This document shows positions 4,330 through 59,156 of a stretch of DNA of 64,000 bases, in pieces (within the stretch, counting starts at the first letter, position 1; every line of letters begins with the position of its first letter). Made by a program: the position numbers and the translations under genes. A model generated the notes under the pieces. The model searched no databases. It was not told the DNA's origin and worked only from the letters and a program-made list of their open reading frames with translations. Location of the stretch: positions 69,969-133,968 of the forward strand of contig NVUH01000005.1 in the NCBI GenBank assembly GCA_002401855.1, written 5' to 3'. Source of the stretch: Hyphomicrobiales bacterium (GTDB taxonomy: Bacteria > Pseudomonadota > Alphaproteobacteria > Rhizobiales > OSC116).

Positions 4330-5895
4330 ATGGGTCATATATTCAGATTATTACGCGCAGCGCACAGCATTGCCAAATACCGCATTATACCTGCTGCGGT
4401 AAAACAGGAAATGCCATTTACCGCCCGCTTCGGTTTGTTTTGCCTCGCGCCATTGACAGCCATTTTTGGCCTACGTAAAACCAACAATATAAACAAAAAC
4501 ATGGCTTTGGCCTTGGCCAAATTAGGCCCTTCTTACATTAAGTTCGGTCAATTTTTAGCCACACGGCCAGACTTAGTGGGCGAGGCGATTGCAGGCAGCC
4601 TGCAACAATTGCAAGACAATGTACCAGCCTTTGAGCATAAGCTAGCCGTGGCACAAGTTGAAAAAAGCTTCGGCAAAAAACTCGATCAGATTTTTAGCGA
4701 ATTCAGCCCCGCAGTAGCAGCAGCCTCAATTGCCCAAGTGCACAAAGCCACATTGGTCGATGGCGGCAAACAAGTGGCCGTAAAAATATTACGCCCCGAT
4801 GTTGAAAAACGCTTTGCCCGCGACCTGTCAGATTTTTTCTTCGCCGCCCGTTTGGCCGAGGGCTTTGACCCCCAAGCCAGACGGCTGCGTTTGGTGGATG
4901 TCGTGGCGACTCTAAAAAAATCAGTCGATGCCGAGATGAATTTACGCTTTGAAGCCGCTGCTATTTCTGAAATGACCGAGCTAAAAAAAGCTTTCGGCGA
5001 TAAATTATCCGCCAGTGCTGATTTCAGCCTGCCCACAGTAAACTGGGCGCTGACCGACAAAAATATCCTCACCACCGATTGGATTGACGGCACACCTTTA
5101 TCTGACTTAAAAGCCGTGCGCGCATTGGGCATTGACACGCCAAAATTGGCAATCAACATCGTCACCTGCTTTTTAACCCAAGCCCTAGAATTTGGCTTTT
5201 TTCATGCCGATATGCATCCAGGCAATATTTTCATCAAACCAGACGGCAAAATAGCCTTGGTTGATTTTGGCATAGTCGACCGCATGAGCAAAAACGAACG
5301 GCGCTTTTTGGCCGAAATCCTATACGGCTTCATCCGCCGCGATTATCTGCACAATGCAAAAATACATTTTGAAGCAGGCTACGTACCAAACCACCACAAT
5401 GTCGAAGATTTTGCTTTGGCTCTACGCGCCATTGGCGAGCCATTAATGAGCGCCGATGCCGAAGATATTTCAATGGGCTTGCTACTCGGCCAATTGCTAA
5501 AAACTACCGAAACCTTCGAAATGCAAACCCAGCTACAGCTTGTCATGCTACAAAAAAGCCTAGTGATTGTTGAAGGCGTGGCACGAATGATCGATCCAAA
5601 GTTCGATATGTTCAAAGCCATGGAACCCTTGCTGAAAAGCTGGTTGAAAAAAACTCTAGGCGCCGAAACAAAAGTAAAAGACGGCCTAGAAGCCATCTCA
5701 GAGCTAGCCAGCCACATACCACACCTACCAGCCTATATCGACCGCGTGAAAAGCAGCATCGAAAAGCTTGATGACATCGCAAAATCAGACGCAATAATGG
5801 CAGAGGCCGCAAAATCCACCCGCCGCCACAGCCGCCTGCAAACAGGCCTGCTGCTAATTGCAGTGACCGCTTTTTTATCAGCATTATATTTTTAG
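4330..5895 (+). CDS. ubiB: UbiB/ABC1 atypical kinase-like ubiquinone biosynthesis protein
   Basis: 521 aa. Starts 2 nt after ubiE. Has ALAKLGPSYIKFGQFLATRPDL, AAASIAQVH, HADMHPGNIF, and a C-terminal TM helix. Confidence 0.85.
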   Translation: MGHIFRLLRAAHSIAKYRIIPAAVKQEMPFTARFGLFCLAPLTAIFGLRKTNNINKNMALALAKLGPSYIKFGQFLATRPDLVGEAIAGSLQQLQDNVPAFEHKLAVAQVEKSFGKKLDQIFSEFSPAVAAASIAQVHKATLVDGGKQVAVKILRPDVEKRFARDLSDFFFAARLAEGFDPQARRLRLVDVVATLKKSVDAEMNLRFEAAAISEMTELKKAFGDKLSASADFSLPTVNWALTDKNILTTDWIDGTPLSDLKAVRALGIDTPKLAINIVTCFLTQALEFGFFHADMHPGNIFIKPDGKIALVDFGIVDRMSKNERRFLAEILYGFIRRDYLHNAKIHFEAGYVPNHHNVEDFALALRAIGEPLMSADAEDISMGLLLGQLLKTTETFEMQTQLQLVMLQKSLVIVEGVARMIDPKFDMFKAMEPLLKSWLKKTLGAETKVKDGLEAISELASHIPHLPAYIDRVKSSIEKLDDIAKSDAIMAEAAKSTRRHSRLQTGLLLIAVTAFLSALYF

Positions 5896-5897
5896 TT

Positions 5898-6500
5898 CCA
5901 AGCAGCCGCACCACCAACCTGCCTCACCCGAACCACCCGCCGCTTGTTCACACAACAAACTCAGAATTTCGTATGTCCTCGTTTCCACGCAAAGATCATT
6001 TCAGTGAGCGCGACAGCGGCCGTTCGAAGCCGCTGCCGTCTAACGCGCGGTCGGCTAGAGAGCGAAGCGAACGCACGCAAGTGTCAACAGCATGCCGAAA
6101 GGCGTGCGTATAAATGAAGTACCCGAGTACAGGCAGGACAGCTAACTTTCTTAGTGTCTTTGCGGCGGCAAATGCAGGTTCATTGTTTGAGATTCCTGCG
6201 CAAACTTTCTAGCTCACAACTTTTCAGCCATCATTGGGCAGTCTCATGCCTAAGCTCTGGAAGTCTGCATTTTCACGTTCGGCTTAAGCCTCTCTGTTAG
6301 CACTTGCGTGCGCTCCACATGCTTCGCATGCTGCGCTAGCCGACCGCGCGTTCGTCGGCAGCGGCTTCGAATGGCCGCTGTCGCGTTCACTGACATGTAT
6401 GGGAGTTGTGGAAACGAGGGCATACGAAATTCTGAGTTTGTTGTGTGAACAAGCGGCGGGTGGTTCGGGTGGGGCAGGTTAGTGGTGCGGCGGCTTTGGG
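5898..6500. repeat. Repeat-family locus A: ~600-bp long hairpin element filling the ubiB/recR convergent gap
   Basis: Perfect 51-nt inverted repeat 5925-5975 vs 6421-6471. The arms continue inward for roughly 190 nt each with few mismatches. Contains core-like GAGAGCGAAGCGAACGCACGCAAGTG (6057-6082) and junction CTCTGGAAGTCTGCA (6255-6269). Confidence 0.95.
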
Positions 6501-6526
6501 CTAGCTAGAAACTCAGAATTCGCTTC

Positions 6527-7132
6527 CTAAAACGGTTTCCGTGCCTTAACCGCCGCGCTCAACGTGCCTTCATCAAGATAATCCAGCTCACCACCGACAG
6601 GCACGCCATGCGCCAACATGGTCACTTCAACATCGCATAATTCAAGCGCATCAGTTAAATAATGGGCGGTGGTTTGCCCATCAATCGTAGCGTTCAGCGC
6701 CAACAAAACCTCTTTAACCTCAGGGTCAGCCGCACGCTCAACCAATTTACTAATATTCAATTGCTCAGGCCCAATGCCATCCAATGCCGATAATGTACCG
6801 CCCAGCACCAAATATGTACCCTTTATCGCATTCGCCCGCTCCAGCGCCCACAGGTCAGCCACATCCTCAACCACACAAATCACATCTTTGGTGCGTTTAG
6901 GGTTGATGCAAATGGCACAAGGATTATTGACATCCAAATTGCCGCATTCACTGCAAGTGTCAACACGCTCAGCAGCATCTTCGGCCGCACGTGCCAACGG
7001 CCGCAACAACTGTTCTTTTTTCTTTATCAAGTGTAAGGTGGCACGCCGCGCAGACCGCGGCCCAAGCCCAGGCAGTCTAGACAATATCTGTATCAGTCGT
7101 TCAATTTCAGCCCCTGCTTTATGCCCGCTCAT
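6527..7132 (-). CDS. recR: Recombination protein RecR
   Basis: 201 aa. LPGLGPRSA helix-hairpin-helix, Cys4 finger [16 protein letters not shown], Toprim region [10 protein letters not shown]. Confidence 0.95.
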
Positions 7133-9483: not shown

Positions 9484-9591
9484 TTAATTTCCAGATATTT
9501 TGGCTGCATTCCATATAGTAAACGGGACGCAGAAAATACGCAAAAGGATAATGCCTATATAAGGAACAAATATAGGAAAAAAAGGAAAAAA

Positions 9592-9685
9592 GGAAACTGG
9601 ACAATAACCCATGAAAGATTCGTTGTGGCTGCTTCCTTCCGGATCTGACCAGATTGGCGAAAGACACGTCCATCGCCAGCTTCCC
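9592..9685 (-). ncRNA. ffs: Signal recognition particle RNA (4.5S, small bacterial type)
   Basis: Minus strand reads CUGGUCAGAUCCGGAAGGAAGCAGCCACAACG, the conserved SRP domain IV motif. 5' GGAAGCUGG pairs with 3' CCAGUUUCC (one G-U). UUCG/CGAA and CGUG/CAUG inner pairings. A U-rich tract follows. Classic position just upstream of dnaX. Ends are approximate. Confidence 0.85.
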
Positions 9686-10594: not shown

Positions 10595-10830
10595 TCTTTC
10601 ATAAAATCTACCAAAGGTATGAACATATTAAACCAAAATTCAAGTGATTTATGGCCAATATATGTTGATTTAGGTAAAATTATTTGGGTTATGCCATTTG
10701 CGGGCTGTTTTGATTTGCTTTCTAGTTTAAAAAATGTTTAATCTAGCAAAAAATAACCCATTGTTAGATATTGATTAAAGTCTTTAATATATACCAGAAT
10801 CTAACAAATTAATATGGTAAGGCGCGCCGC

Positions 10831-11499: not shown

Positions 11500-11635
11500 A
11501 TGGCACCTAGTTTACGGCATAGCGGCAAACTCGCGAAAGCTTTAGATGATGAAGCCAATTGGGGTGCCGAATTAGCACAATTAAGGCGGCTGAGTGGCTT
11601 AGCAAGCGATGCGGAGCATCGCGCACGCAGTGGCC
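11500..11635 (-). repeat. Repeat-family locus J (half element, inverted orientation)
   Basis: Contains GGGGTGCCGAATT and GCGGCTGAGTGGCTTAGC plus a degenerate core GATGCGGAGCATCGCGCACGCAGTG. These match the reverse complement of the left half of loci C, E and F. Confidence 0.8.
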
Positions 11636-11643
11636 AATATAAA

Positions 11644-12630
11644 GTGGCCCAATATAGAAAGAACAACACGATCAGCATTCTCATCGCATCATTAAAACAG
11701 TCCAACATCAGCTGGTATAACGGCTTCAAAGCCATAGCCCCCAAAGTCGGCATAGACCCCAATGAAATCGAATATTGGCCACATGTTGCCGACCCAAGCA
11801 AAGTCGAATATTTAGCCGTGTGGAAACCGCCATATGACATATGCGCCCAACTGCCCAATGTGAAAGTAATCTTTAACCTCGGCGCCGGCGTCGACCATTT
11901 ACTACTAGATGACAGCCTGCCGCCAAACATCCCGATTGTACGGGTGGTTGATGACAATTTAACCCGCCGTATGGGAGAATATGTTTTACTGCAAGTGCTT
12001 TATCACCTGCGTGAAATGCCAAAATTACGTGTGGCACAAGCCGCACATGAATGGCCAGAGCAATATGACCCCGATGCTGTCGATGTCAGTGTTGGCATTA
12101 TGGGCTTGGGCGAAATTGGCGGCCATTGCGCAGCACTTGTGCAGCAAATGGGGTTTAAAACCTTGGGTTGGAGCAATAGCGTTAAAAATATTACGGGCGT
12201 TAAATCTTATGCTGGTCTTGACCAATTGGATGAGTTTTTGGCTGAAACCGAGATTTTGATCAACATATTACCACATACTGATGCCACCAATAAATTGGTA
12301 GATTACCAACTATTGCAAAAACTAAAATCTGATGGCGGCTTGCAAGGCGCTACCTATGTTGCGGCAGGGCGCGGTAAAACTCATGTCGAAACTGATATTG
12401 TGCAGGCGCTTAAAGATGGTTGCCTGAAATCCGCCTCGATGGATGTGTTTGAGCAAGAGCCCCTTGCCGCCGATAGCCCCTTATGGGATTTGCCTAACGT
12501 GGTCATCACCCCGCATAATGCTGCCACTTCTGACCGACAAACAGTCAGCGAGCAAATATTGACGCAAATTGCCAACCATAGAAATGGTTTGCCCTTACAA
12601 AATATAGTGGATTTAACCAAAGGCTATTGA
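11644..12630 (+). CDS. D-isomer-specific 2-hydroxyacid dehydrogenase (glyoxylate/hydroxypyruvate reductase A-like)
   Basis: ORF 11500..12630. NAD fold GIMGLGEIGG, catalytic-domain motifs, ITPHNAA. The first 48 codons of the track ORF are repeat sequence, so GTG 11644 is the proposed start (uncertain). Confidence 0.75.
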   Translation: MAQYRKNNTISILIASLKQSNISWYNGFKAIAPKVGIDPNEIEYWPHVADPSKVEYLAVWKPPYDICAQLPNVKVIFNLGAGVDHLLLDDSLPPNIPIVRVVDDNLTRRMGEYVLLQVLYHLREMPKLRVAQAAHEWPEQYDPDAVDVSVGIMGLGEIGGHCAALVQQMGFKTLGWSNSVKNITGVKSYAGLDQLDEFLAETEILINILPHTDATNKLVDYQLLQKLKSDGGLQGATYVAAGRGKTHVETDIVQALKDGCLKSASMDVFEQEPLAADSPLWDLPNVVITPHNAATSDRQTVSEQILTQIANHRNGLPLQNIVDLTKGY

Positions 12631-15494: not shown

Positions 15495-16811
15495 TTAAGC
15501 GTCATTAACATTGTCTTGTTGTAAATATTGGTCTATCGAGCCATCAAATTCAGGGTTTGGGGTTTCACTCTGCGCATTAATCTGCGGGTCTGGTACGTCC
15601 TCTGCCAGCTCCAAACTATCAATCCGCTGGCCTTTCTTAAAGATTTTGGTGGTCGAGGTTTGAATGGCCACCACATCTTTTTCAATCATTGCAAAATGTT
15701 TGGATAGGTTGGCCACTCTTGTATCCAACCGCCGCATGTCATCCATCATATTGGCCACTTCATTCTGAATTAAATGCGCTTGCTCTCGCATTTTGGCGTC
15801 TTTTAATATCGATTGAATGGTCTGGATGGCCAACATCAACATATTTGGTGAGGCGATAAACACCCGTTTGCGATGGCTTTCCTGAATCAAATCATCGAAA
15901 TTCTCATGAATTTCGACAAATATATATTCGCTCGGCACAAACATAATGGCATTGTCTTGTGTTTCGCCGGGGATAAAATATTTGTCCGCAATGTCTTGAA
16001 TGTGTTTTTTAACGCTGATCCGAACTTGGGCTTTGGCAGTTTTGGCTTCTTGCTCATTACGTGCCTCTTGCCAAGCCCGAAACCCTTCGAGCGGGAATTT
16101 GGCATCAACCACAATCGATGCCGATTGATTGGGCAGATGAATCAGGCAATCAGGCCGTTTGCCATTGCTTAATGTCGCCTGAAAATCATAAGCATTGCGC
16201 GGCAAACCATCGGCAATGATGGCTTCCATCTGGCCTTGACCAAACGCACCCCTTGCTTGCTTGTTGCGTAAAATATTTTGCAAATCAACCACATGTGAGG
16301 ATAAATCGGTGATATTTTTTTGCGCATTGTCGATCAATGACAAGCGTGAATTAATGTGAGTGAGGCTTTCAAAAGTGGTTTTTTGGTTTTGGGTCAGGCT
16401 TTGCCCAACTTTATGGCCCAAATTATCCATTCTTTCATTCAACACGCGTGCCAAGCCCGATTGTTGATTGGCTTGAACATCGCCTAAATTTTTAATTTTG
16501 CCCGACAATTCAGCATTGGCCTTGATCAAATCCAGCATGCGGTGTTCGAGTTGTTGATTTTTGTTTTTTTCGGCCTCGAATCGGCTGACATCATTTTCAT
16601 ACCGGTTACGTTCGGCCTCTAGCTGAAATTTTGCCGCGGTTTTTTGGCTGCGGCTAAAACTAAAAATCGCAAACACAATCAACAATGCCAGTAAAGCCAA
16701 GCCGAGCAGGGTATAAAATTCATAAGTTGATAACATCATAGTGCCAAAGCTGGATGATGGGTCTTGAAGCATATAGAGATTCCGATCAGTGATTTGAATC
16801 TTACTTACCAC
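15495..16811 (-). CDS. rmuC: DNA recombination protein RmuC
   Basis: N-terminal TM helix, long coiled-coil, C-terminal RmuC nuclease-like domain (RPDCLIHLP...VVDAKFPL...FVPSE). The start may be an internal Met. Confidence 0.85.
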   Translation of the reverse strand: MVSKIQITDRNLYMLQDPSSSFGTMMLSTYEFYTLLGLALLALLIVFAIFSFSRSQKTAAKFQLEAERNRYENDVSRFEAEKNKNQQLEHRMLDLIKANAELSGKIKNLGDVQANQQSGLARVLNERMDNLGHKVGQSLTQNQKTTFESLTHINSRLSLIDNAQKNITDLSSHVVDLQNILRNKQARGAFGQGQMEAIIADGLPRNAYDFQATLSNGKRPDCLIHLPNQSASIVVDAKFPLEGFRAWQEARNEQEAKTAKAQVRISVKKHIQDIADKYFIPGETQDNAIMFVPSEYIFVEIHENFDDLIQESHRKRVFIASPNMLMLAIQTIQSILKDAKMREQAHLIQNEVANMMDDMRRLDTRVANLSKHFAMIEKDVVAIQTSTTKIFKKGQRIDSLELAEDVPDPQINAQSETPNPEFDGSIDQYLQQDNVNDA

Positions 16812-17425: not shown

Positions 17426-17444
17426 GCTACAAAGAGTTAAAATA

Positions 17445-17580
17445 AAGCACCACAATTCGGCACTTCTGGAGATCTCCTCTGAACCCGAAGGGTGAAGCAA
17501 GGCCAAGCGGCCGTCGCCGTTAGGCGCAGCAAGCAAACGGAGTTTGCGCACGCAGTGCTAAGCATAAGTGCAGAATTTCG
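17445..17580 (+). repeat. Repeat-family locus B (shortened right-half element) inside the def-fmt spacer
   Basis: AATTCGGCAC, ACCC-GAA-GGGT, GGCC-AAGC-GGCC, GTCGCCGTTAGGCG and a degenerate core ...GCGCACGCAGTGCTA match the right half of loci C, E and F. Also contains the palindrome GGAGATCTCC (17467-17476). Confidence 0.85.
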
Positions 17581-17599
17581 CAACGAAGTGGAGAAAGTT

Positions 17600-18526
17600 T
17601 TGCGTATTATTTTTATGGGCACGCCCGAAATATCAGTCAATACCTTAGGCGAGCTAATATCACAAGGCCACGACATTGTGGCGGTATACAGCCAACCACC
17701 ACGCCCAGCTGGTCGCGGCAAGAGCCTACGCAAAACCCCCGTGCATCAATTTGCCGAAGATATGGGGCTAGAAGTTTACACCCCGCTAAATTTTAAAGCC
17801 CAAGCCGACATTGATATCTTTGCCGCCCATCAGGCCGAAGTCGCCGTGGTCGTGGCATACGGCTTGCTACTGCCCAAAGCCATCCTAGATGCACCAGAGC
17901 ATGGCTGTCTAAACCTACACGCCTCACTATTGCCAAGGTGGCGTGGTGCAGCACCCATTCAACGCGCCATCATGGCAGGCGATGCCAAATCAGGCATGAT
18001 GGTGATGCAAATGGATGAAGGCTTAGACACTGGCGACATCTGCTTGGTAGATATGATACCCATCACCCCAAATATGACGGCAGGTGAGCTACACGACTTA
18101 ATGGCACCTTTAGGCGCAAACCTAATGGCACGCGCCATTTCGGCACTAGAATGGGGCGGCCACAGCGAAACCCCGCAGGCTGACGAGGGCGCAACCTACG
18201 CCAAAAAAATTGACAAAGCCGAAGCCAAAATCGACTGGTCATCAGACGCACAAAACTTGCACAACCACATACGCGGCCTATCACCATTCCCAGGCGCATG
18301 GTGTGAATTTGAAAAAGACGGCAAAACCACCCGAATTAAAATTCTAGGCACAGAAATGACGGATGGCAACGGAACAGCAGGTGAATTGCTAGATGATGAA
18401 CTAACCGTAGCCTGCGGTTCAGGCGCGCTACGCATAACCCGCTTGCAGCGCTCTGGCAAAGGCGTTAGCAGCATGGCCGATTTCCAACGCGGGTACTTTA
18501 TTGCCAAAGGTGAGCGGTTTATTTGA
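17600..18526 (+). CDS. fmt: Methionyl-tRNA formyltransferase
   Basis: Track ORF 17492..18526 begins in repeat sequence. TTG 17600 after GGAGAA gives the canonical (M)[13 protein letters not shown]-terminus. Also [15 protein letters not shown]. Confidence 0.9.
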
Positions 18527-18544: not shown

Positions 18545-19130
18545 ACCCACTAACTGTTTTTTTGCGGCCTATACGGGGAAGCATCCTGCCAGCGCTCTGG
18601 AAGTTTGCATTTTTGTTTGGCACTGCGTGCGTTCGCTCCGCTCTCTAGCTAAGCCACTCAGCCGCTGGTCGGAGGCAAATTCGGCACCCCAATCAACTAC
18701 ATTACGCTTAGTGAGCTAGAGTTTGGAGAAGCTCCGAGTATAGGTGCTATATAATTTACTCATTGTGCTTTTCATGGAAAAAGAGTCCGAAGCCTTTGGC
18801 TGAGGCAAGCGCGACCGCGCGTCGCCGTTAGGCGTGGCAAGAGAGCGGAGCGAACGCACGCTAGTGCTAACAGAGAGGCGAAGCCGAATGAAAAAATGAG
18901 ACTTCCAGAGCTTAGGCAGGAGCGCTACCCGGTATAGGCTGTAAAAAGACAGTTGGCTGGTAGTTGAGGCTCTGGAAGTCTGCTCTTATTTCGTTCGCGG
19001 CTATTCTTCGCTTTGCTCAGGCCTACACGGGTGCGCCACATAAGTGGCGGCCTCCAGTTCGGCTGGCTCTAAAAACACATGAGTTTTTAGAGCAAGAGGT
19101 GTACTGAAAGGTTGCGGCTGGGGTGCCGAG
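18545..19130 (+). repeat. Repeat-family locus C (full mosaic element plus extra modules) between fmt and ftsK
   Basis: Junction CTCTGGAAGTTTGCA 18595-18609. Core GCACTGCGTGCGTTCGCTCCGCTCTC 18620-18645. Inverted core 18841-18867. Inverted junction 18897-18910. Second junction 18970-18983. Extra hairpin CTCTAAAAAC/GTTTTTAGAG 19067-19092. Confidence 0.95.
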
Positions 19131-23780: not shown

Positions 23781-23951
23781 GGGCACTCTAAACAAAATGA
23801 AACGATTTTGAGCTACAACCACGCAACTCTCACGGTCTCAAGCTACCAAACTAGAGTTAAGAGCAGGTTAAAAAGACGAGCTAAACTTGCAGATATGTGA
23901 ATAAAATGATTAAAACTTGAGTGAAACGAGTTAAATAAATTAACTTTATAT

Positions 23952-24320
23952 GTTCGGCTTCGCCTCTCTTTTTATCGTTCGCGTTGCTCTCTATAAGCAC
24001 TAGCGTGCGTTCGCTCCGCTCTCTTGCCACGCCTAACGGCGACGCGCAGTCGCGCTTGCCTCAGCCCAAGGGCTTCGGACCCTTTTCCCATGATATGCAG
24101 TATAGTACCAAGCAGCAAACTCCGAATTTGTTGGGGCGCACCGAAATACGGAGTTTCACCAAACTCTAGCTAACTTAGCTTAATGAAGTCACGTTGGGTG
24201 GTGAATTCGCATCCGATCAGCGGCCGAGTGGCTTAGCTAGGGAGCGGAGCGAACGCACGCAGTGCCAAACATAATGCAAACTTCCAGAGCGTTGGCAGTA
24301 GCGCTATACTGCTTGCTCGG
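23952..24320 (-). repeat. Repeat-family locus D (full element, central module inverted relative to C, E and F)
   Basis: Core 23997-24023. Inverted core 24240-24265. Inverted junction TGCAAACTTCCAGAG 24275-24289. The central ~215 nt is the reverse complement of the C/E/F centre. Confidence 0.95.
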
Positions 24321-26714: not shown

Positions 26715-26737
26715 AAATCTTTAATTCTTAAAGTAAA

Positions 26738-26767
26738 AGCACCGAGTTTCTCGGTGCTTTTTTTTTG
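26738..26767 (+). terminator. Rho-independent terminator of ftsZ
   Basis: AGCACCGAG-TTTC-CTCGGTGCT followed by a 9-nt T-run. Confidence 0.85.
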
Positions 26768-26770
26768 GTT

Positions 26771-27345
26771 AATGTTTGGCACTGCCTCTTTATGTTTGGC
26801 ACTGCGTGCGTTCGCTCCGCTCTCTAGCTAAGCCACTCGGCCGCTGATCGGATGTGAATTCGGCACCTAAGTTGACCTCATTAAGCTAAGTTGGCTGGAA
26901 TATGCCGACATTCTGAGTTTCGGTGGTATCCTTGTTGATGCTCTGGAAGTTTGCATTATATTTGGCACTGCGTGCGTTCGCTCCGCTCTCTAGCTAAGCC
27001 ACTCAGCCGCTGATTGGATGTGAATTCGGCACCCCAATCAACTAAATTACGCTTAGTGAGCTAGAGTTTGGAGAAGCACCGAGTATGGGTGCTAAACTGC
27101 TACTCATTGTGCTTTTCTTGGAAAATATGCCCGACCCCGTAGGGTGAGGCAAGGCCGACTGGCCGTCGCCGTTAGGCGTGGCAAGAGAGTGGAGCGAACG
27201 CACGCAGTGCTACTAGCTCACCGATAGGTGGGCGAAAAAGAGAGGCGAAGCCGAACGAAAAAATGTAGACTTCCAGAGCTTAGGCAGGAGTGCGACCCTA
27301 GTATAGGCTGTAAAAAGACAGTTAGCTGGTAGTTAGGGCTCTGGA
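26771..27345 (+). repeat. Repeat-family locus E (truncated copy followed by a full copy, in tandem)
   Basis: Cores at 26799-26824 and 26965-26990. Inverted core 27185-27210. Junctions 26941-26955 and 27329-27343. Inverted junction 27264-27278. ATGTTTGGCACTGC is duplicated at 26772 and 26792. Confidence 0.95.
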
Positions 27346-27390
27346 AGTTTGTACTTTTCCTGATATGGTGCGGGTGGGAGACTTATATAG

Positions 27391-48564: not shown

Positions 48565-48985
48565 ATTTTCTGAGTTGGTTGTAAATAGACAGTTGGCTGG
48601 TCGTTGAGGCTCTGGAAGTTTGCATTTTTTCGTTCGGCTTCGCCTCGCTTTTTATCGTTCGCGTTGCTCTCTATAAGCACTAGCGTGCGTTCGCTCCGCT
48701 CTCTAGCTAAGCCACTCAGCCGCTGGTCGGATGCGAATTCACCACCCCAATCAACTACATTACGCTTAGTAAGCTAGAGTTTGACGAAGCACCGAGTATA
48801 GGTGCCATATAATTTACTCATTGTGCTTTTCGTGGAAAAAAAGCCCGAACCCGTAGGGTGAGGCAAGCGCGACTGCGCGTCGCCGTTAGGCGTGGCAAGA
48901 GAGCGGAGTGAACGCACGCAGTGTTTATAGAGAGCAACGCGAACGACAAAAGAGAGGCGAAGCCGAACGTAAAAATGCAGAGACA
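48565..48985 (+). repeat. Repeat-family locus F (full element) between lepA and the LacI gene
   Basis: Junction 48610-48624. ~82-nt inverted arms (48621-48703 vs 48899-48980, ~90 percent complementary by eye) carry the core at 48677-48703 and the inverted core at 48899-48923. ~195-nt centre. Confidence 0.95.
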
Positions 48986-48987
48986 CA

Positions 48988-50058
48988 TCAGTGTCTCGAG
49001 CCGCCAAAGGCGAGGGCGCTGCGGCGGGGGGGTGAGCAGGAGTTTCGCACTACCAATTCGCCGTGCAATAAGGTTATTTCGGTATTTTGGCTGCGGTTGA
49101 CGATTGAATCTAGTAGACGGGTCATGGCGATTTTGCCGATCATGGCGCGGGGTTGGCGGATGGTGGTTATTGATGGGGTGAAATGGTTGGAGAAGGGGAT
49201 GTCATCGAAGCCGATGACTGAAAAATCTTTTGGCACATTGAAGCCGCGTGATTGTAGGGCGCTGATCACGCCGATGGCGGTGTCATCATTAAAACAGGCA
49301 AAGGCGGTGGGTAATGTATCGCGGATGAATAGGCGTTCGACGGCGGCGCGGCCGCCTTCGGCAGTGCCGTTGCTGCTGACATTCCAAAAGAATTTTTCGC
49401 CAAAACGTTGTAAAAGGGCGTTTTTATAGCCCGTATAGCGCAATTCTGAAATTACATCGCCTTGTGGGCCAGCGATATAGGCAATGTCTTGATGGCCTAG
49501 GGATATTAAATATTCAGTGGCCATTCTATAGCTGGTTAAATCGTCCACCCCAACATAGTTAATCTCGCTATGGTCTATAGGGCGCATGGCCGTCACCATA
49601 GGCGGAAAAGTGCTGACTTGGCTGCGTGGCCAACCTGCTACGGGCAGGTGACCTGTTAATAAAATCATGCCATCGGCTATACCTGTGGAGAGAAAACGTA
49701 AATATTTTGCCTCTAATTCTGCATCGGAATCGGTGTTGCCGATCAGCACGCCATAGCCGCGTTCGTTTGCGGCTTTTTCTAGGCCGATTAGAAGACCTGA
49801 AAAATTTGAATCTGCAATAGATTGGGTCAATACTAAAACCATTTGTGAGCGTTGTTTGCGCAGGTTTTGTGCCATGGCATTGGCGATGTAACCCGTGCGA
49901 GCTATGGCACTCATCACTTTTTTCTTGGTGGTTTCGGCAACTTTTTCGGGCTTGGAAATGGCACGGCTTACCGTGGCGATGGACACGCCAGCAATTTTGG
50001 CAACATCTTCGATTGTTGCGGTTTTTTTTGTAAACTCATCCACCAATTCTGCGTCCAA
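48988..50058 (-). CDS. LacI-family transcriptional regulator
   Basis: N-terminal HTH TIEDVAKIAGVSIATVSRAI. Periplasmic-binding-protein-like core. Confidence 0.9.
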   Translation of the reverse strand: MDAELVDEFTKKTATIEDVAKIAGVSIATVSRAISKPEKVAETTKKKVMSAIARTGYIANAMAQNLRKQRSQMVLVLTQSIADSNFSGLLIGLEKAANERGYGVLIGNTDSDAELEAKYLRFLSTGIADGMILLTGHLPVAGWPRSQVSTFPPMVTAMRPIDHSEINYVGVDDLTSYRMATEYLISLGHQDIAYIAGPQGDVISELRYTGYKNALLQRFGEKFFWNVSSNGTAEGGRAAVERLFIRDTLPTAFACFNDDTAIGVISALQSRGFNVPKDFSVIGFDDIPFSNHFTPSITTIRQPRAMIGKIAMTRLLDSIVNRSQNTEITLLHGELVVRNSCSPPRRSALAFGGSRH

Positions 50059-53884: not shown

Positions 53885-54045
53885 GGCTAGCTCTGAACTT
53901 CAGTACAGCACTCGTATCCAAATAACGTGCCATACAGTGAGCGCGACAGCGGCCGTTCGAAGCCGCTGTCGTGCTCGCTGAAATGGCCTTTGTTTGGAAA
54001 CGAGGGGTAGATAGAAACTCTGAGTTTGCAGTTTTGGAAGTTTAT
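53885..54045. repeat. Repeat-family locus G (outer-arm module of locus A)
   Basis: 19-bp stem CAGTGAGCGCGACAGCGGC (53935-53953), loop CGTTCGAA, GCCGCTGTCGTGCTCGCTG (53962-53980). Flanks match the locus A arm (CCTCGTTTCC, AAACTC(A/T)GAGTTT). Confidence 0.85.
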
Positions 54046-55664: not shown

Positions 55665-56474
55665 GATGTAGGCAGCGATGAATGCTGCCAGTGGTTCATC
55701 GCGCAAGATGCGTTTGTGGCCTAGGCCTTGGGTTGCATGAAACTCACCATTTGGCCAGTTTTTTTGCAAATTGGTAAATTCGGAAAATGGGATTTCTTTG
55801 TCATTTTCGTCATGGATAATTAGCGGCAATCTGGCTTTATATATATCACTATTGATTAGGCTAATAGAATCGACGGTGTGTTGGGTTAGTGCGTTTAACT
55901 TATCTAGCATCAGCTTTTGTGCTTTAAGTGATAAGTGAATGGTGGCAAAATATTTGTTAAATACGGTGCGTATATTGGTTGGCGCGGATATGAAGACCAG
56001 AATTTTAGGTAATGTTATATATTTATGTAATAAGCCGATGATGGCGCCACCCATAGAGTGGCCAATATAGGCTGCAGGCTTTAAGTCTTGTGATGCTAAA
56101 TCTTCGATTAAGGCCAAAGTCATGCTTAAAATTTGTGTTTTGGTGCCTGGTGAGGCGCCATGGGCAGGGGCGTTCCAGCCAATAACTTGATAATTTTGGG
56201 CTAATAATGCCCGAATGATGACATGAAATTGAGTGCCGCGTGATTCCCAGCCATGGCATAAGAATATAAGCGGGGCAGCTGGGTCACCCCAAAGGGTGGC
56301 GCGTCTGCCGCTGCTAAATGTGAGCTGTGTGCCTTCATTAAACAAAGCCAGCTCTTGCTCATTTCTGTCAAATTTACGCGGTCTGCTGAATAGGCTCAAC
56401 GCTAGGTTTGCTGCCATATTGGGCGAGGTGGTGGAGAGAATATTTATGAATGTGGGAATGTATTTTCTGAGCAT
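55650..56474 (-). CDS. Alpha/beta hydrolase
   Basis: 274 aa. HGWESRG, nucleophile elbow GHSMGG, C-terminal GLGHKRIL. Confidence 0.8.
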   Translation of the reverse strand: MLRKYIPTFINILSTTSPNMAANLALSLFSRPRKFDRNEQELALFNEGTQLTFSSGRRATLWGDPAAPLIFLCHGWESRGTQFHVIIRALLAQNYQVIGWNAPAHGASPGTKTQILSMTLALIEDLASQDLKPAAYIGHSMGGAIIGLLHKYITLPKILVFISAPTNIRTVFNKYFATIHLSLKAQKLMLDKLNALTQHTVDSISLINSDIYKARLPLIIHDENDKEIPFSEFTNLQKNWPNGEFHATQGLGHKRILRDEPLAAFIAAYIKKNA

Positions 56475-56552
56475 ATGTGTATCAATTATGGGGGGCCTGA
56501 TTGATTGGTTATTTTTGAATATAGTTATTAAATGCTTAAAACTTCAATAAAT

Positions 56553-56652
56553 TGCCATGCAATAACTGCATGGCAGGGTTTCGATAATGGTGCTTTTCAA
56601 TAAAAAAATATTATCTATATTGGCGTTAACAGGGAGCGATGCTCCACAATAT
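56553..56652 (+). promoter_or_regulatory. Leader/promoter module of DUF1127 cassette 1
   Basis: Palindrome GCCATGCA-N5-TGCATGGC (56553-56573). TTTTCA-N16-TATATT (56593-56620). Hairpin GGAGC-GAT-GCTCC (56632-56644). TATATT/AATATA complementarity. Confidence 0.45.
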
Positions 56653-56675
56653 AACACCATTTATGGAGAAGAAAC

Positions 56676-56861
56676 ATGGCTTTATTTACAGCGAATAAAA
56701 ATGCAAAATCAAAAAAATCAACTGGTCTATTGGCTAGATTTAATGAATCGGCTAAATTGCGCCGTGCTGAAAAAGCATTGCTTAAATTAGATGATCGCAT
56801 GCTTTCTGACATTGGTGTGTCTCGCGGTGATGTTCATGGTAAAGTTTGGGGCCAATTCTAA
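56676..56861 (+). CDS. DUF1127 small protein (paralog 1)
   Basis: 61 aa. KLRRAEKALLKLDDRMLSDIGVSRGDV matches the DUF1127 signature (R-rich helix + LSDRxLxDIGxxRxD). RBS GGAGA. Confidence 0.85.
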   Translation: MALFTANKNAKSKKSTGLLARFNESAKLRRAEKALLKLDDRMLSDIGVSRGDVHGKVWGQF

Positions 56862-56909
56862 ACCTAACCGCTAATAATTAGATGCGCAAATTTTTTATAG
56901 GATAAAAAC

Positions 56910-57074
56910 ATGGCTTATATTACACATACGGATGAACTAAAAACAACTTCATCTATCTTTGCTAAGATTTCTAAATTCTTGAAGAGTGTTGGAAATTCTT
57001 TTATACGGGCGCAAGAAGCTCGGGCGCGTCAACATGTTAAAAAATATATGACCAAAAGCTATAAACCTTTTTAG
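56910..57074 (+). CDS. Possible 54-aa basic peptide co-transcribed with DUF1127 paralog 1
   Basis: Manual ORF (below track cutoff): MAYITHTDELKTTSSIFAKISKFLKSVGNSFIRAQEARARQHVKKYMTKSYKPF. AGGA lies 8 nt upstream. The only terminator follows it. Confidence 0.3.
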   Translation: MAYITHTDELKTTSSIFAKISKFLKSVGNSFIRAQEARARQHVKKYMTKSYKPF

Positions 57075-57113
57075 GTTGTTGCTAAGAATTTTGGTTAAAG
57101 TGTATTTTAAAAA

Positions 57114-57143
57114 GCCTTTCACGATTGTGAGAGGCTTTTTGTT
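57114..57143 (+). terminator. Rho-independent terminator after cassette 1
   Basis: GCCTTTCAC-GATT-GTGAGAGGC followed by TTTTT. Confidence 0.75.
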
Positions 57144-57163
57144 TGTGAAGATATTATGACGCT

Positions 57164-57279
57164 AGCTATGCAATGAATGCATGGCTGGTGCGTTATAACT
57201 GTGCTTTTCATCATGGCTTAGAGTGCCTATATATAAGTTATTAGATGAGCAAGGGCTCTTCTTATTTGCCAAATATAGG
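57164..57279 (+). promoter_or_regulatory. Leader/promoter module of DUF1127 cassette 2
   Basis: Palindrome AGCTATGCA-N5-TGCATGGCT (57164-57186). TTTTCA-N17-TATATA (57205-57233). Hairpin GAGC-AAGG-GCTC (57247-57258). CCTATAT/ATATAGG (57226-57232 / 57273-57279) overlaps the AGGA RBS. Confidence 0.45.
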
Positions 57280-57288
57280 ATTAATATC

Positions 57289-57474
57289 ATGGCTTTATTT
57301 ACATTGACAAAAACAGACAAAACTAAAAAAACTACCGGCTTTATTGCAAAATATAGCGAAACTGCTAAATTGCGCCGCGCCGAAAGAGAATTGAATAAAA
57401 TGAGTGATCGTATGCTTGAAGATATTGGTGTATCTCGCGGCGATGTGCACGGTAAAATTTGGGGTGAGTTCTAA
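57289..57474 (+). CDS. DUF1127 small protein (paralog 2)
   Basis: Start moved to internal ATG 57289 (MALFTLTKTDKTKK...). KLRRAERELNKMSDRMLEDIGVSRGDV. Confidence 0.85.
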   Translation: MALFTLTKTDKTKKTTGFIAKYSETAKLRRAERELNKMSDRMLEDIGVSRGDVHGKIWGEF

Positions 57475-57510
57475 GAACTAACCTAACCAACAGCCGAATA
57501 TAGTTTCTGA

Positions 57511-57546
57511 AGCCTTCTGATATTTTTAATGTCAGAGGGCTTTTTT
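57511..57546 (+). terminator. Rho-independent terminator after cassette 2
   Basis: GCCTTCTGA-N11-TCAGAGGGC followed by TTTTTT. Confidence 0.75.
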
Positions 57547-57556
57547 GTTGGTTAGA

Positions 57557-57715
57557 TTTATGTTTGGCCCCTGCGGGCACAACACATCCGTGTTGCTTGC
57601 TAAGCCACTCAGCCGCTGGTCTTATTGTTTATTCACCACCCCATTTAGGCTCATTATTTTACGTTGAGTAGAGTTTGGCGAAATACCGCATGTTGGTGCT
57701 ATACGGATATTCGGG
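57557..57715 (+). repeat. Repeat-family locus H (left-half variant)
   Basis: ATGTTTGGCC..., variant core with hairpin GCACAACAC-ATCC-GTGTTGC, then GCTAAGCCACTCAGCCGCTGGTC, ATTCACCACCCC, GAGTAGAGTTTGG. Confidence 0.85.
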
Positions 57716-57746
57716 ACTGGTTAGGGTGTGTCGGTTAAATTTTGGG

Positions 57747-57861
57747 GTCATGTAATAAATGCATGGCTGGTGTGTTGTAACTGCGCTTTTCATTGTGGGG
57801 TGGATTGCCTATATATAGGTTGTTAGACGGAACAAGGGTTCCTCTTATTGCTACATATAGG
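57747..57861 (+). promoter_or_regulatory. Leader/promoter module of DUF1127 cassette 3
   Basis: Palindrome GTCATGTA-N5-TGCATGGC (57747-57767, two G-T positions). TTTTCA-N17-TATATA (57787-57815). Hairpin GGAAC-AAGG-GTTCC (57829-57842). CCTATAT/ATATAGG (57808-57814 / 57855-57861). Confidence 0.45.
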
Positions 57862-57870
57862 ATTAGTATT

Positions 57871-58056
57871 ATGGGTTTATTTACATTGACGAAAACAGAA
57901 ACAACTAAAAAATCAGCTGGCTTTATCGCAAAATATAGCGAAACTGCTAAATTGCGCCGCGCTGAAAAAGAATTGAATAAAATGAGCGATCGTATGCTTG
58001 AAGATATTGGTATATCTCGCGGTGATGTTCATGGTAAAGTTTGGGGTTCTTTTTAA
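57871..58056 (+). CDS. DUF1127 small protein (paralog 3)
   Basis: Start moved to ATG 57871 (MGLFTLTKTETTKK...). 52 of 61 residues identical to paralog 2 by my count. Confidence 0.85.
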   Translation: MGLFTLTKTETTKKSAGFIAKYSETAKLRRAEKELNKMSDRMLEDIGISRGDVHGKVWGSF

Positions 58057-58087
58057 GAATAACCAACAGCCGAATATAGTTTCTAAA

Positions 58088-58121
58088 GCCTTCTGATATT
58101 ATAATGTCAGAGGGCTTTTTT
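58088..58121 (+). terminator. Rho-independent terminator after cassette 3
   Basis: GCCTTCTGA-N9-TCAGAGGGC followed by TTTTTT. Confidence 0.75.
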
Positions 58122-58132
58122 GTTGGTTGGTT

Positions 58133-58270
58133 TTATGTTTGGCCACTGCGTGCGCAACACATCCGTGTTGCTTGCTACGCCTAACGGCGACGGCCAGTCG
58201 GCCTTGCCTCAGCCTAAAGGCTTCGGATTTTTTCCCTCGAATGGTTTTACTCATCGCATGGTGAATGAGA
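58133..58270 (-). repeat. Repeat-family locus I (variant core + inverted right-half module)
   Basis: ATGTTTGGCCACTGCGTGCG, hairpin GCAACAC-ATCC-GTGTTGC, then TACGCCTAACGGCGAC-GGCC-AGTC-GGCC-TTGCCTCAGCCTAAAGGCTTCGG, the reverse complement of the right half of C, E and F. Confidence 0.85.
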
Positions 58271-58277
58271 CGTAAAG

Positions 58278-59156
58278 TCAAACTCTAAGTATGAGTGTTG
58301 CCCAGTCGTCGATGATGTTGCGGTCTACTTCTTTGAAGCCTTGGGCTTTGAAGTAGGATGAGACCCAGTTGGCTTGGGTGGCTAGTAGGCCTGAGAGTAT
58401 TAGTGAGCCGTCATCTGTTATGTTGTTTTTGATCTCGACTGCCATTGTGGTGAGAGGTTTGGCTAAAATGTTGGCGATGATGAGGTCATAGGGGGCGTTG
58501 TCACGTAGCTCAAGGTGGTTGAAGCCCTTGGCCGTGATCGGGGTGATTAGGTTTTGGACGTTGTTGATTGTTGCGTTTTCGCGCGTGATTTGGGTGGCGA
58601 CGGGGTCTATGTCGGTGGCGATGACGCGGGTTTTTAGGACTTTGGCGGTGGCAATTGCGAGTAAGCCGGTGCCTGTGCCTAGGTCTATTGGCTTGTGGAA
58701 TGCACCGACTTTTAGCAATTTGTCTAGGGCGATTAAGCAGCCTTTAGTGGTGCCGTGATGGCCTGTGCCGAAGGCTAAATTGGCGTCAATTTCTAGGCCA
58801 ATGGCTGATTGGGGGCATTTGTGGGCATCGTGTTTGCCGTGCAGGAAAAAACGACCTGCTTGTATGGGGGCGAGGGCGGTGAGGCTCTCGGCGACCCAGT
58901 TTACATTTTCATCTAAGGTGATGATGTTGATGTCGAGTGGTGCAAGGTTCGCATCGGTGAATAGCTTGTTTAACTCATCGGCTTTGGGTTTGAATTCATA
59001 ATAGGCGCGCAAATCCCACTCTTGGCTTTCGTCATGGGTTTCGAACCAAGTGATGCTCATGGCTTCTGGCCATAGGGCTTGCTCTAGGGCATCGGCATAT
59101 TGGTTGGCGATTGATTTGCTCGCGATGCATTGCGCGTAAAAACGGGCTTCTTCCAT
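58278..59156 (-). CDS. prmA: Ribosomal protein L11 methyltransferase
   Basis: 292 aa. FGTGHHGTT, SAM motif IDLGTGTGLLAIA, ANIL. Confidence 0.9.
   Translation of the reverse strand: MEEARFYAQCIASKSIANQYADALEQALWPEAMSITWFETHDESQEWDLRAYYEFKPKADELNKLFTDANLAPLDINIITLDENVNWVAESLTALAPIQAGRFFLHGKHDAHKCPQSAIGLEIDANLAFGTGHHGTTKGCLIALDKLLKVGAFHKPIDLGTGTGLLAIATAKVLKTRVIATDIDPVATQITRENATINNVQNLITPITAKGFNHLELRDNAPYDLIIANILAKPLTTMAVEIKNNITDDGSLILSGLLATQANWVSSYFKAQGFKEVDRNIIDDWATLILRV

Follow-up and report, generated by a model that had tools for sequence, protein, structure and literature searches.

Between the converging ubiB and recR genes of a Hyphomicrobiales bacterium lies a palindrome of some 600 bp, and the question raised by this locus is whether so long a hairpin serves the two genes or came to rest between them as a repeat. 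The window, meaning the whole stretch of DNA that was analysed, comprises 64,000 nucleotides (nt) of contig NVUH01000005.1 (assembly GCA_002401855.1, positions 69,969 to 133,968), and coordinates without a prefix refer to it. An initial annotation made from the letters alone had suggested a bidirectional transcription barrier, a site that stabilises or processes RNA, or a hotspot of recombination and replication stalling. The structure and the family membership are as that annotation read them, but a dedicated function is doubtful. Judging from sequence comparison, the 611-bp hairpin is probably a composite in which non-coding palindromic repeats, selfish or neutral, are nested. The element can be regarded as an undescribed and unusually long mosaic repeat, akin to miniature inverted-repeat transposable elements (MITEs) and REPINs. 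It is not a canonical terminator, appears dispensable to the cell, and probably acts only as a passive RNA or DNA hairpin barrier.

Architecture of the ubiB/recR palindrome

The ubiB gene (4330-5895, + strand), which encodes an ABC1 kinase-like protein with an ABC1 domain, and recR (6527-7132, - strand) are separated by a spacer of 631 nt. An imperfect palindrome of 611 bp (5893-6503), to which, as to its parts, no strand is assigned, occupies the whole of this convergent gap. Its first 3 nt are the ubiB stop codon, TAG at 5893-5895, which pairs with CTA at 6501-6503, and its far end is 23 nt short of the recR stop codon. The element had been correctly described as filling the gap, although the start had been placed 3 nt past the ubiB stop and the end about 26 nt from the recR stop. 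The perfect 51-nt inverted repeat reported at 5925-5975 and 6421-6471, with a separation of 445 nt, is exact and cannot be extended by even one base on either side.

A repeat search resolved three pairs of arms, the outermost at 5893-5988/6408-6503 (96 nt, 93%), the second at 5997-6071/6323-6397 (75 nt, 85%) and the innermost at 6069-6119/6265-6315 (51 nt, 71%). A blastn self-comparison matched 5900-6090 to 6496-6294 with 84.7% identity over 203 nt. When the arms were aligned with gaps, the symmetry extended over approximately 5893-6139 and 6250-6503, with 207 matches, 38 mismatches and 16 gap columns, leaving a centre of about 110 nt. Each arm is thus about 245 nt long and about 80% complementary to the other; the long complementarity that had been noted is real, but the earlier length of about 190 nt per arm was too short. 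Folding of the + strand as RNA gave a single long hairpin of -412.8 kcal/mol, compared with -220 +/- 10 for dinucleotide shuffles (z = -19.8), and the DNA fold of -247.4 kcal/mol was similarly extreme (z = -30). The folding check that the initial annotation had called for therefore bears out a very long hairpin-forming palindrome.

The analysis goes beyond the earlier description in showing that the palindrome is composite and nested, and that it is built on a dispersed, probably mobile unit. The outer palindrome consists of two 59-nt arms, 5893-5951 and 6445-6503, which pair with each other, the left one starting on the ubiB stop. Among all the sequences compared, these outer arms were found at the ubiB/recR locus only, in the window and in the related genome NORP194, with a weak orthologous trace in a third relative (L199; relatives are designated here by the handles of their contigs). 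Without the intervening sequence they would abut as a 118-bp palindrome. At their centre lies the dispersed repeat proper, an "A-type" foldback unit of 493 bp (5952-6444) with the ends ACAACAAACTCAG... and ...CTGAGTTTGTTGT. The bounds of this unit were set by homology to a copy elsewhere, in the ftsA/mepB gap of another relative (L205:8930-9340). The unit is made of two inverted "arm units" of about 200-250 nt around the centre of about 110 nt, and each arm unit is put together from modules of a family that occupies many gaps at the 3' ends of genes in this genome.

Several modules can be recognised within the A-type unit. A motif scan of the window located a 13-nt near-palindromic end motif, AAAYTCNGARTTT, at the left (5957-5969) and right (6427-6439) ends of the unit. 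The motif has 9 matches in the window, where 1.4 are expected; 7 of the 9 fall inside family repeat loci, and the motif marks module ends. A solo copy, AAACTCAGAATTC, at 6509-6521, between the palindrome and the recR stop, is probably the leftover of an earlier family insertion. The mid-arm modules lie at 5978-6039, with a local tip hairpin CAGCGGC-CGTTCGAA-GCCGCTG at 6014-6035, and at 6356-6418, with a tip hairpin at 6359-6380. The mid-arm sequence (5956-6039 and 6356-6440) matches a stand-alone hairpin of about 115 nt at 53911-54030, called locus G in the initial annotation, where the module was rightly assigned to the arms but was taken to be in their outermost part.

The inner arms carry the family cores whose presence within the hairpin had been proposed, and both are over-represented in the window. 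The inner left arm (6053-6139) matches the "R arm" module of a second class of family element, designated U-type, and has the core GCGAACGCACGC at 6067-6078; this arm has partly degenerated, with a local hairpin in place of 6084-6110. The inner right arm (6250-6330) matches the U-type "L arm" module and contains GCTCTGGAAGT at 6254-6264. The inner arms are therefore ordered R-centre-L, which is the layout found at junctions between U-type units. The centre or loop (6140-6249) is 81% identical to that of NORP194 and 71% identical to that of the L205 copy at the other locus, and thus belongs to the dispersed unit and is not local sequence.

The possibility was considered that the palindrome is an assembly artefact, produced when the assembler joined sequence to itself in a chimeric fold-back. 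In favour of this, the genome comes from metagenome assembly, and the short-read contigs of several relatives break just past ubiB. However, the element lies within contigs and is flanked on either side by unique genes, and it recurs in the genome closest by recR protein, the metagenome-assembled genome "Alphaproteobacteria bacterium NORP194", recovered from crustal fluid below the seafloor at North Pond (background in PMC5739024). The NORP194 contig aligns collinearly with 11.9 kb of the window, about 90-91% of positions being identical (91% over 6.6 kb), and has the element at the same place with 85.3% identity. Moreover, two indels are private to the NORP194 version: 33 nt are tandemly duplicated in the right inner arm and 9 nt have been deleted from the left outer arm. 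A version identical to that of the window across the element is found in a re-assembly of another sample in ENA, and the NORP194 version in a further ENA re-assembly. Because independently assembled sequences show the same architecture despite 15% divergence, with arms that are imperfect and indels of their own, an assembler artefact, which the initial annotation had named as grounds for discarding the palindrome, is rejected and its probability is practically negligible.

An inversion of the centre between the genomes was also considered and is ruled out, the centre being collinear in the window and NORP194; the copy in L205 is an entire A-type unit turned round, not an inverted centre alone. 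One of the ENA contigs (L081) is identical to the window over 8.3 kb except for 12 mismatches, all within the 93 nt of 10611-10703, in the divergent gap between a prephenate dehydratase and a cytochrome c gene. This cluster suggests a patch introduced by recombination or a variant within the population.

The recR gene is followed in the window by ybaB, dnaX and then the gene for the small bacterial signal recognition particle (SRP) RNA (9588-9685, - strand; 49.5 bits), the sole gathering-level Rfam match in the window. On the other side, genes for a recF-like protein, dnaN and dnaA lie about 3-7 kb past ubiE in NORP194 (L197:2842-6853), which corresponds to a place outside window position 1, so the palindrome is near the dnaA region of the chromosome.

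The repeat family in the window and in relatives

The family to which the A-type unit belongs occupies at least nine intergenic gaps of the window and amounts, with the ubiB/recR element, to about 3.9 kb or about 6% of its length. Self-BLAST identified repeat loci at 11546-11648, 17481-17567, 18550-19014, 23945-24298, 26784-27358, 48577-48981, 53935-54028 and 56675-58241, all of them intergenic. The core GCGAACGCACGC has 10 matches in the window against 0.44 expected, and GCTCTGGAAGT has 9 against 0.62 expected. Four of the loci (18550-19014, 23945-24298, 26784-27358 and 48577-48981) are U-type elements, giant hairpins of 350-575 nt in which L and R arms of 60-100 nt surround a central domain of about 190 nt that is up to 89% identical between copies. 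One example, 48565-48990, folds at -213 kcal/mol (z = -17.6). By our reading of the list of open reading frames (ORFs), the family loci lie in three convergent and six co-directional gaps and in none of the divergent, promoter-bearing gaps.

Individual loci of the window have features of their own. Between prmA and a gene for an alpha/beta hydrolase, a gap of 1.8 kb (56475-58277) holds three tandem copies of a unit of about 580-610 bp that contains family modules, two of which (57168-57606 and 57750-58181) are 87% identical. Tandem Repeats Finder reported no array in 56400-58300, since it handles periods up to 500 and that of this array is about 580-610 nt. A family module (17481-17567) also lies between def and fmt (17426-17600), two genes that usually form one operon. 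The mechanically called start of the fmt ORF, GTG at 17492, falls inside this repeat, and the true start is therefore probably further downstream. After ftsZ there is a canonical intrinsic terminator (26735-26761; AAAAGCACCGAG-TTT-CTCGGTGCTTTTTTTTT) ahead of the family element, indicating that family elements are added downstream of ordinary terminators and do not substitute for them. The window further contains an rmuC homologue (15495-16811, - strand). RmuC is described as limiting inversions at short inverted repeats, and its presence in a genome rich in inverted repeats may be coincidence.

The orthologous site was then compared among relatives. A recR look-up in 80 genomes returned NORP194 as the sole sharer of the ubiB/recR junction, and the other syntenic relatives were reached through UbiB homologues. 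In NORP194 (UbiB 97%), ubiB is followed by the element and then recR. The contig of L199 (UbiB 87%) stops 119 nt past ubiB, and its tail aligns to the outer arm and the left unit end; the alignment is weak but exceeds all 500 shuffles (score 18 versus 5.7 +/- 2.3). A different neighbouring gene follows ubiB after a 35-nt gap in L200 (UbiB 83%). In L201 (UbiB 81%), ubiB and recR converge over 371 nt without the large palindrome, the spacer containing two other family modules that are 88% identical to 18987-19114 and 92% identical to 17517-17564 of the window. The same two genes converge over just 19 nt in L204 (UbiB 77%), and the contig of L203 (UbiB 75%) breaks 59 nt past ubiB within a U-type arm. 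The site 3' of ubiB is thus empty in one lineage and occupied by other family members in others. The spacer comparison had been proposed in the initial annotation, which regarded short orthologous spacers lacking the element as evidence against its importance, and the 19-nt spacer of a relative with the same ubiB/recR layout is essentially that outcome.

Copies of the unit were also found away from ubiB. A lone arm unit of about 200 nt lies in the tetR/recF gap of NORP194 (L197:2640-2850) and is 80% identical to 6247-6439 of the window. In L205, a relative that is 81-84% identical to the window, an A-type unit including the centre occupies the convergent ftsA/mepB gap (L205:8930-9340), in reversed orientation and with one mid-arm deleted. 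The gap between ftsZ and a SIR2 gene measures 676, 272 and 218 nt in three lineages, and a complete U-type unit of about 410 nt is present there in the window but not in L205 or L207.

The gap at the mepB-like gene upstream of ftsZ was observed to hold U-type sequence in the window (23823-24303) and in L207 (L207:136-534), and A-type sequence in L205 (L205:8900-9352). The upstream neighbours at this gap differ, being ftsA in L205 and an aminotransferase gene and ftsK in the window; repeat loci therefore coincide with rearrangement breakpoints, as they also do at ubiB/recR. Furthermore, the short-read contigs of L199 (end 2353), L202 (end 7598) and L203 (end 6649) terminate about 35-120 nt past ubiB, with tails that all match family sequences of the window. 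The family repeats thus appear to fragment the assemblies of this clade.

Outside these relatives, no sequence similarity was detected by plasmid blastn or by exact-pattern scans of viral contigs and of metagenomes of the Joint Genome Institute (JGI). No family modules were found at the recR loci of the other 78 Hyphomicrobiales. The blastn search of the element against 72,556 plasmids, a collection that presumably includes rhizobial megaplasmids, gave no match. A 15-mer core scan of viral contigs gave 112 single matches, at or below chance by our rough estimate of the size searched, and the mid-arm hairpin pattern had 0 matches in a scan of public contigs. Three JGI metagenome matches to a 22-mer core pattern were rejected, all being high in G+C and unrelated to the family; they look like chance. 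The exact-match patterns were too strict for diverged relatives, which the protein look-ups later revealed. Taken at face value, these comparisons suggest a family confined to a small clade of uncultured marine-subsurface Hyphomicrobiales.

Maintenance of the hairpin and its possible function

The rate of change was evaluated by comparing the window with NORP194, using 805 4-fold degenerate sites from six flanking genes as the reference. Identity was 78.3% at the 4-fold sites and 85.3% over the whole element, with 88-93% in the outer arms, 81% in the centre and 75% in the left mid-arm, whereas the neighbouring, regulatory intergenic regions were 92-100% identical. The element is therefore weakly constrained. 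In the left mid-arm, the patch at 5989-6000 differs between the two genomes and each version, as read from alignments, resembles another copy of the family, which suggests conversion in patches between dispersed copies.

Although the sequence changes nearly as fast as 4-fold sites, the pairing of the arms has been kept. Six compensatory double changes were counted on the long-range pairs of the minimum-energy fold, compared with 1.1-1.2 expected when the observed substitutions were shuffled among positions of the same base (P about 0.0002-0.0008). Additionally, single changes that break a pair numbered 13-16 rather than the approximately 28 expected. In an alignment of all four arms, 7 sites showed concerted change in the two arms of one genome, compared with 2 "crossed" control sites; the remaining sites comprised 17 old arm-specific differences and 45 singletons. 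The arm pairing is kept by compensatory changes and some force must therefore act, either selection for the hairpin or template switching from arm to arm. Pairs of the G.U type showed no strand asymmetry (11 versus 10 in the window, 11 versus 11 in NORP194), nor did an earlier count of G.U versus A.C pairs (9 versus 6 and 8 versus 5). This symmetry gives no sign of selection on one transcript and fits a process at the DNA level, as well as transcription of both strands.

Evidence for a coding or canonical regulatory role was not obtained. The internal ORFs of the element (46-57 amino acids) had no Pfam match and their frames are broken by indels in NORP194. Rfam 15 returned no family for the element at the gathering level or at E <= 10, the best internal match having E ~3 and scores there being 10-18 bits, and no match was found for a U-type relative of the element. 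The G+C-rich stem and U-tract of a Rho-independent, bidirectional terminator are not present at either end of the element; past the stem the + strand reads GCTAGAAACTCAG and the - strand CTAAAAATATAATG, neither with a U-tract, and a T-rich run is on the wrong side. A motif scan of the region for promoters and terminators gave match counts close to those of shuffled sequence, with no promoter-like site inside the element and a single terminator-like site, a weak 6-pair stem at 6120-6135. The same scan found no convincing canonical terminator for either ubiB or recR.

The element was also compared with the defining features of MITEs and of REP-type repeats. Its ends, ACAACAAACTCAG... and ...CTGAGTTTGTTGT, are inverted copies common to the copy at another locus, and the symmetry spans the full length of the unit. 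It is small and non-coding (493-611 bp). Dispersed copies exist at L197:2640-2850 and L205:8930-9340, as a short form at 53911-54030 and as modules at 9 loci of the window. Insertion polymorphism is evident from spacers of 19 nt (L204), 371 nt (L201) and 631 nt (window). Like REPINs and BIMEs, the element is an inverted doublet that forms a hairpin and shows mosaic clustering, but the 20-40 nt high-copy unit of those repeats is absent, the modules here being about 60-250 nt with about ten core copies in 64 kb.

These features lead to a possible course of events. The ancestral ubiB/recR spacer would have been short, about 19 nt, and the gap between two gene ends would have offered a permissive landing place, into which family elements may have entered and repeatedly replaced one another. 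The present arrangement would date from after the split from the lineage with 81% UbiB and before the split of the window from NORP194. The unit may have been inserted at the apex of an older palindrome, or the palindrome may have grown outward; the proposed course assumes that the outer palindrome with 59-bp arms is older than the foldback unit at its centre of symmetry. Foldability would have been kept mainly by intramolecular template switching or arm-to-arm conversion, possibly with the help of weak selection, while patches of sequence may have been exchanged with other family copies as well. Template switching can both give rise to hairpins and preserve them (PMC8794818). Transcripts that run on past either gene would form a double-stranded RNA stem with up to about 245 imperfectly paired positions, a likely obstacle to polymerase and exonucleases and a likely substrate of RNase III, much as Correia elements bind RNase III (PMC2649163). 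Such a stem could passively insulate the converging genes, as has been described of Correia, ERIC and REP-type repeats; MITEs fold as long stem-loops and REPs are biased toward convergent gaps (PMC3184786).

Several considerations weigh against this account. Slower change than at 4-fold sites, together with kept pairing, also fits selection for a functional hairpin. The full element is found in two genomes only, so the covariation statistics amount to one pairwise comparison. No transposase or RAYT gene was seen in the 64-kb window or in the loci with listed called genes, and the case for transposition therefore comes from the distribution of copies. Nor could a target-site duplication be defined, the flanks of the unit being palindromic here and those in L205, like the empty site of L204, being too diverged. 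Deletion and recombination could also give the pattern of presence and absence. Finally, the choice between insertion at an apex and outward growth cannot be read from the palindrome because both yield an identical symmetric sequence.

The alternative closest to the original suggestion is a hairpin selected as a barrier to transcription from both sides or as a stabiliser of mRNA 3' ends, which would avert convergent collision and protect both 3' ends. The exact placement between two converging stop codons, the very stable fold on both strands and the lack of a convincing canonical terminator for either gene are as expected of such a device, as are the compensatory changes in the stem, the slightly slower change than at 4-fold sites and the avoidance of divergent promoter gaps by the family. 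However, a relative with the same gene pair needs only 19 nt, other relatives have unrelated sets of modules at the site, and neither strand has a U-tract beyond the stem, the T-rich run being misplaced. Of the nine convergent gaps in the window, six are, again by our reading of the ORF list, short and without such elements, and the terminator upstream of the family element at ftsZ shows that ordinary terminators are in use here. Moreover, the equal numbers of G.U-type pairs on both strands give no sign of strand-specific selection on RNA, and the L205 copy at the other locus has one decayed arm. The indirect evidence therefore leans against a dedicated, selected function of the hairpin, because of the missing U-tract, the 19-nt relative, the different modules in others and the near-4-fold rate, and a selected barrier appears unlikely.

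A more speculative thought, which can be given little credence, is that the giant A- and U-type hairpins (350-610 nt) form a new foldback class, mobilised or copied in the form of hairpin DNA by an enzyme that recognises AAAYTCNGARTTT, with a preference for inserting at the apexes of existing palindromes, or are kept for a role of their double-stranded transcripts; a preference for apexes, if true, would explain the nesting seen here. A new functional kind in the wider sense, such as a mobile element that moves as a giant single-stranded DNA hairpin with a RAYT/IS200-IS605 or IS110-type enzyme, or a locus for a trans-acting double-stranded or structured non-coding RNA, is slightly less credible again. 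The over-represented 13-nt palindromic motif at unit ends, lengths far beyond those of typical REP and MITE repeats, the 89% conservation of the U-type central domain and the failure to match an Rfam family would suit it, but no candidate enzyme lies within the window, the centre is conserved no better than the arms, the module content turns over rapidly and the interior has no promoter-like site, its one terminator-like stem being weak and its motif counts near those of shuffled sequence. It is very improbable that the palindrome is a DNA-level element, extruded as a cruciform or lagging-strand hairpin for recombination, replication pausing or protein binding near the dnaA region. Extrusion should be hindered by a centre of about 110 nt and by the weak pairing of the inner arms (71%) and is therefore probably rare; a syntenic relative lacks the element, and the family is present at many unrelated sites. 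Long palindromes do form hairpins that are cut by SbcCD in E. coli, but in the systems studied these are a liability and not a function (PMC3315005). The very stable DNA fold, the proximity of dnaA, dnaN and recF, the coincidence of the element and other family loci with synteny differences among relatives, and the symmetry of G.T and A.C mismatches between strands would otherwise be in its favour. A nested composite of selfish or neutral repeats thus remains the explanation to which the greater part of our confidence is given.

Comparison with known repeats

The natural palindrome of about 600 bp in a chromosome is longer than those usually reported for bacteria. It differs from the engineered 246-bp interrupted palindrome studied in E. 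coli by the Leach laboratory in being natural and imperfect, with a centre of about 110 nt and weakly paired inner arms. Cleavage at the time of replication has been observed for artificial palindromes alone, which exceed the natural ones of bacteria in length (PMC3315005), and a natural palindrome of 611 bp is for this reason of some interest. The palindrome has been kept foldable by paired changes across roughly 9% sequence divergence, and offers a natural case for studying the tolerance of long hairpins despite SbcCD and RNase III, the maintenance of hairpins by template switching versus selection, and the nesting of mosaic repeats. Furthermore, a single repeat family explains the large "empty" gaps and the contig breaks in these subseafloor Hyphomicrobiales genomes.

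With Rho-independent bidirectional terminators the element shares a hairpin between converging genes, but flanking A/U tracts are absent and the stem is 10-20 times longer. RIMEs in rhizobia, NIMEs in Neisseria and BOX elements in pneumococcus are, like this family, intergenic mosaics of a few palindromic modules. RIMEs occur in Hyphomicrobiales, the same order as the host of the element. These repeats are however about 100-200 bp long and no sequence relation to them was found, the comparison with RIMEs being by plasmid blastn.

The REP, BIME and REPIN repeats, which are mobilised by RAYT, resemble the element in their inverted hairpin doublet (the logic of REPINs), their mosaic units (the logic of BIMEs) and their bias for convergent and co-directional gaps (PMC3184786, PMC2817692). 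Their units are 20-40 nt and occur in hundreds, whereas the modules here are about 100-250 nt, number in the tens in the window and have no RAYT in sight there.

The closest parallels may be drawn with the Correia elements (CREE) of Neisseria and the ERIC/IRU sequences of enterobacteria, which are likewise non-coding, multi-copy and intergenic at the 3' ends of genes. Their halves are inverted copies, so that the transcript folds as one long stem-loop; their presence varies between relatives, and bigger variants arise by internal insertions. The effects on RNA described for CREE, namely cleavage by RNase III and altered stability, would by analogy be expected here too (PMC2649163, PMC3184786). 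The differences are that Correia and ERIC elements measure about 100-170 bp, compared with 493 bp here (611 bp with the outer palindrome), that the element here is modular with modules recurring in other combinations, and that neither a target-site duplication nor a cognate insertion sequence nor an IHF site has come to light for it. The element most likely represents an ordinary selfish repeat of unusual size, with no new mechanism by itself. What is new is the family; its kind is already known, and it stands out for its length (493 bp or 611 bp) and its nesting.

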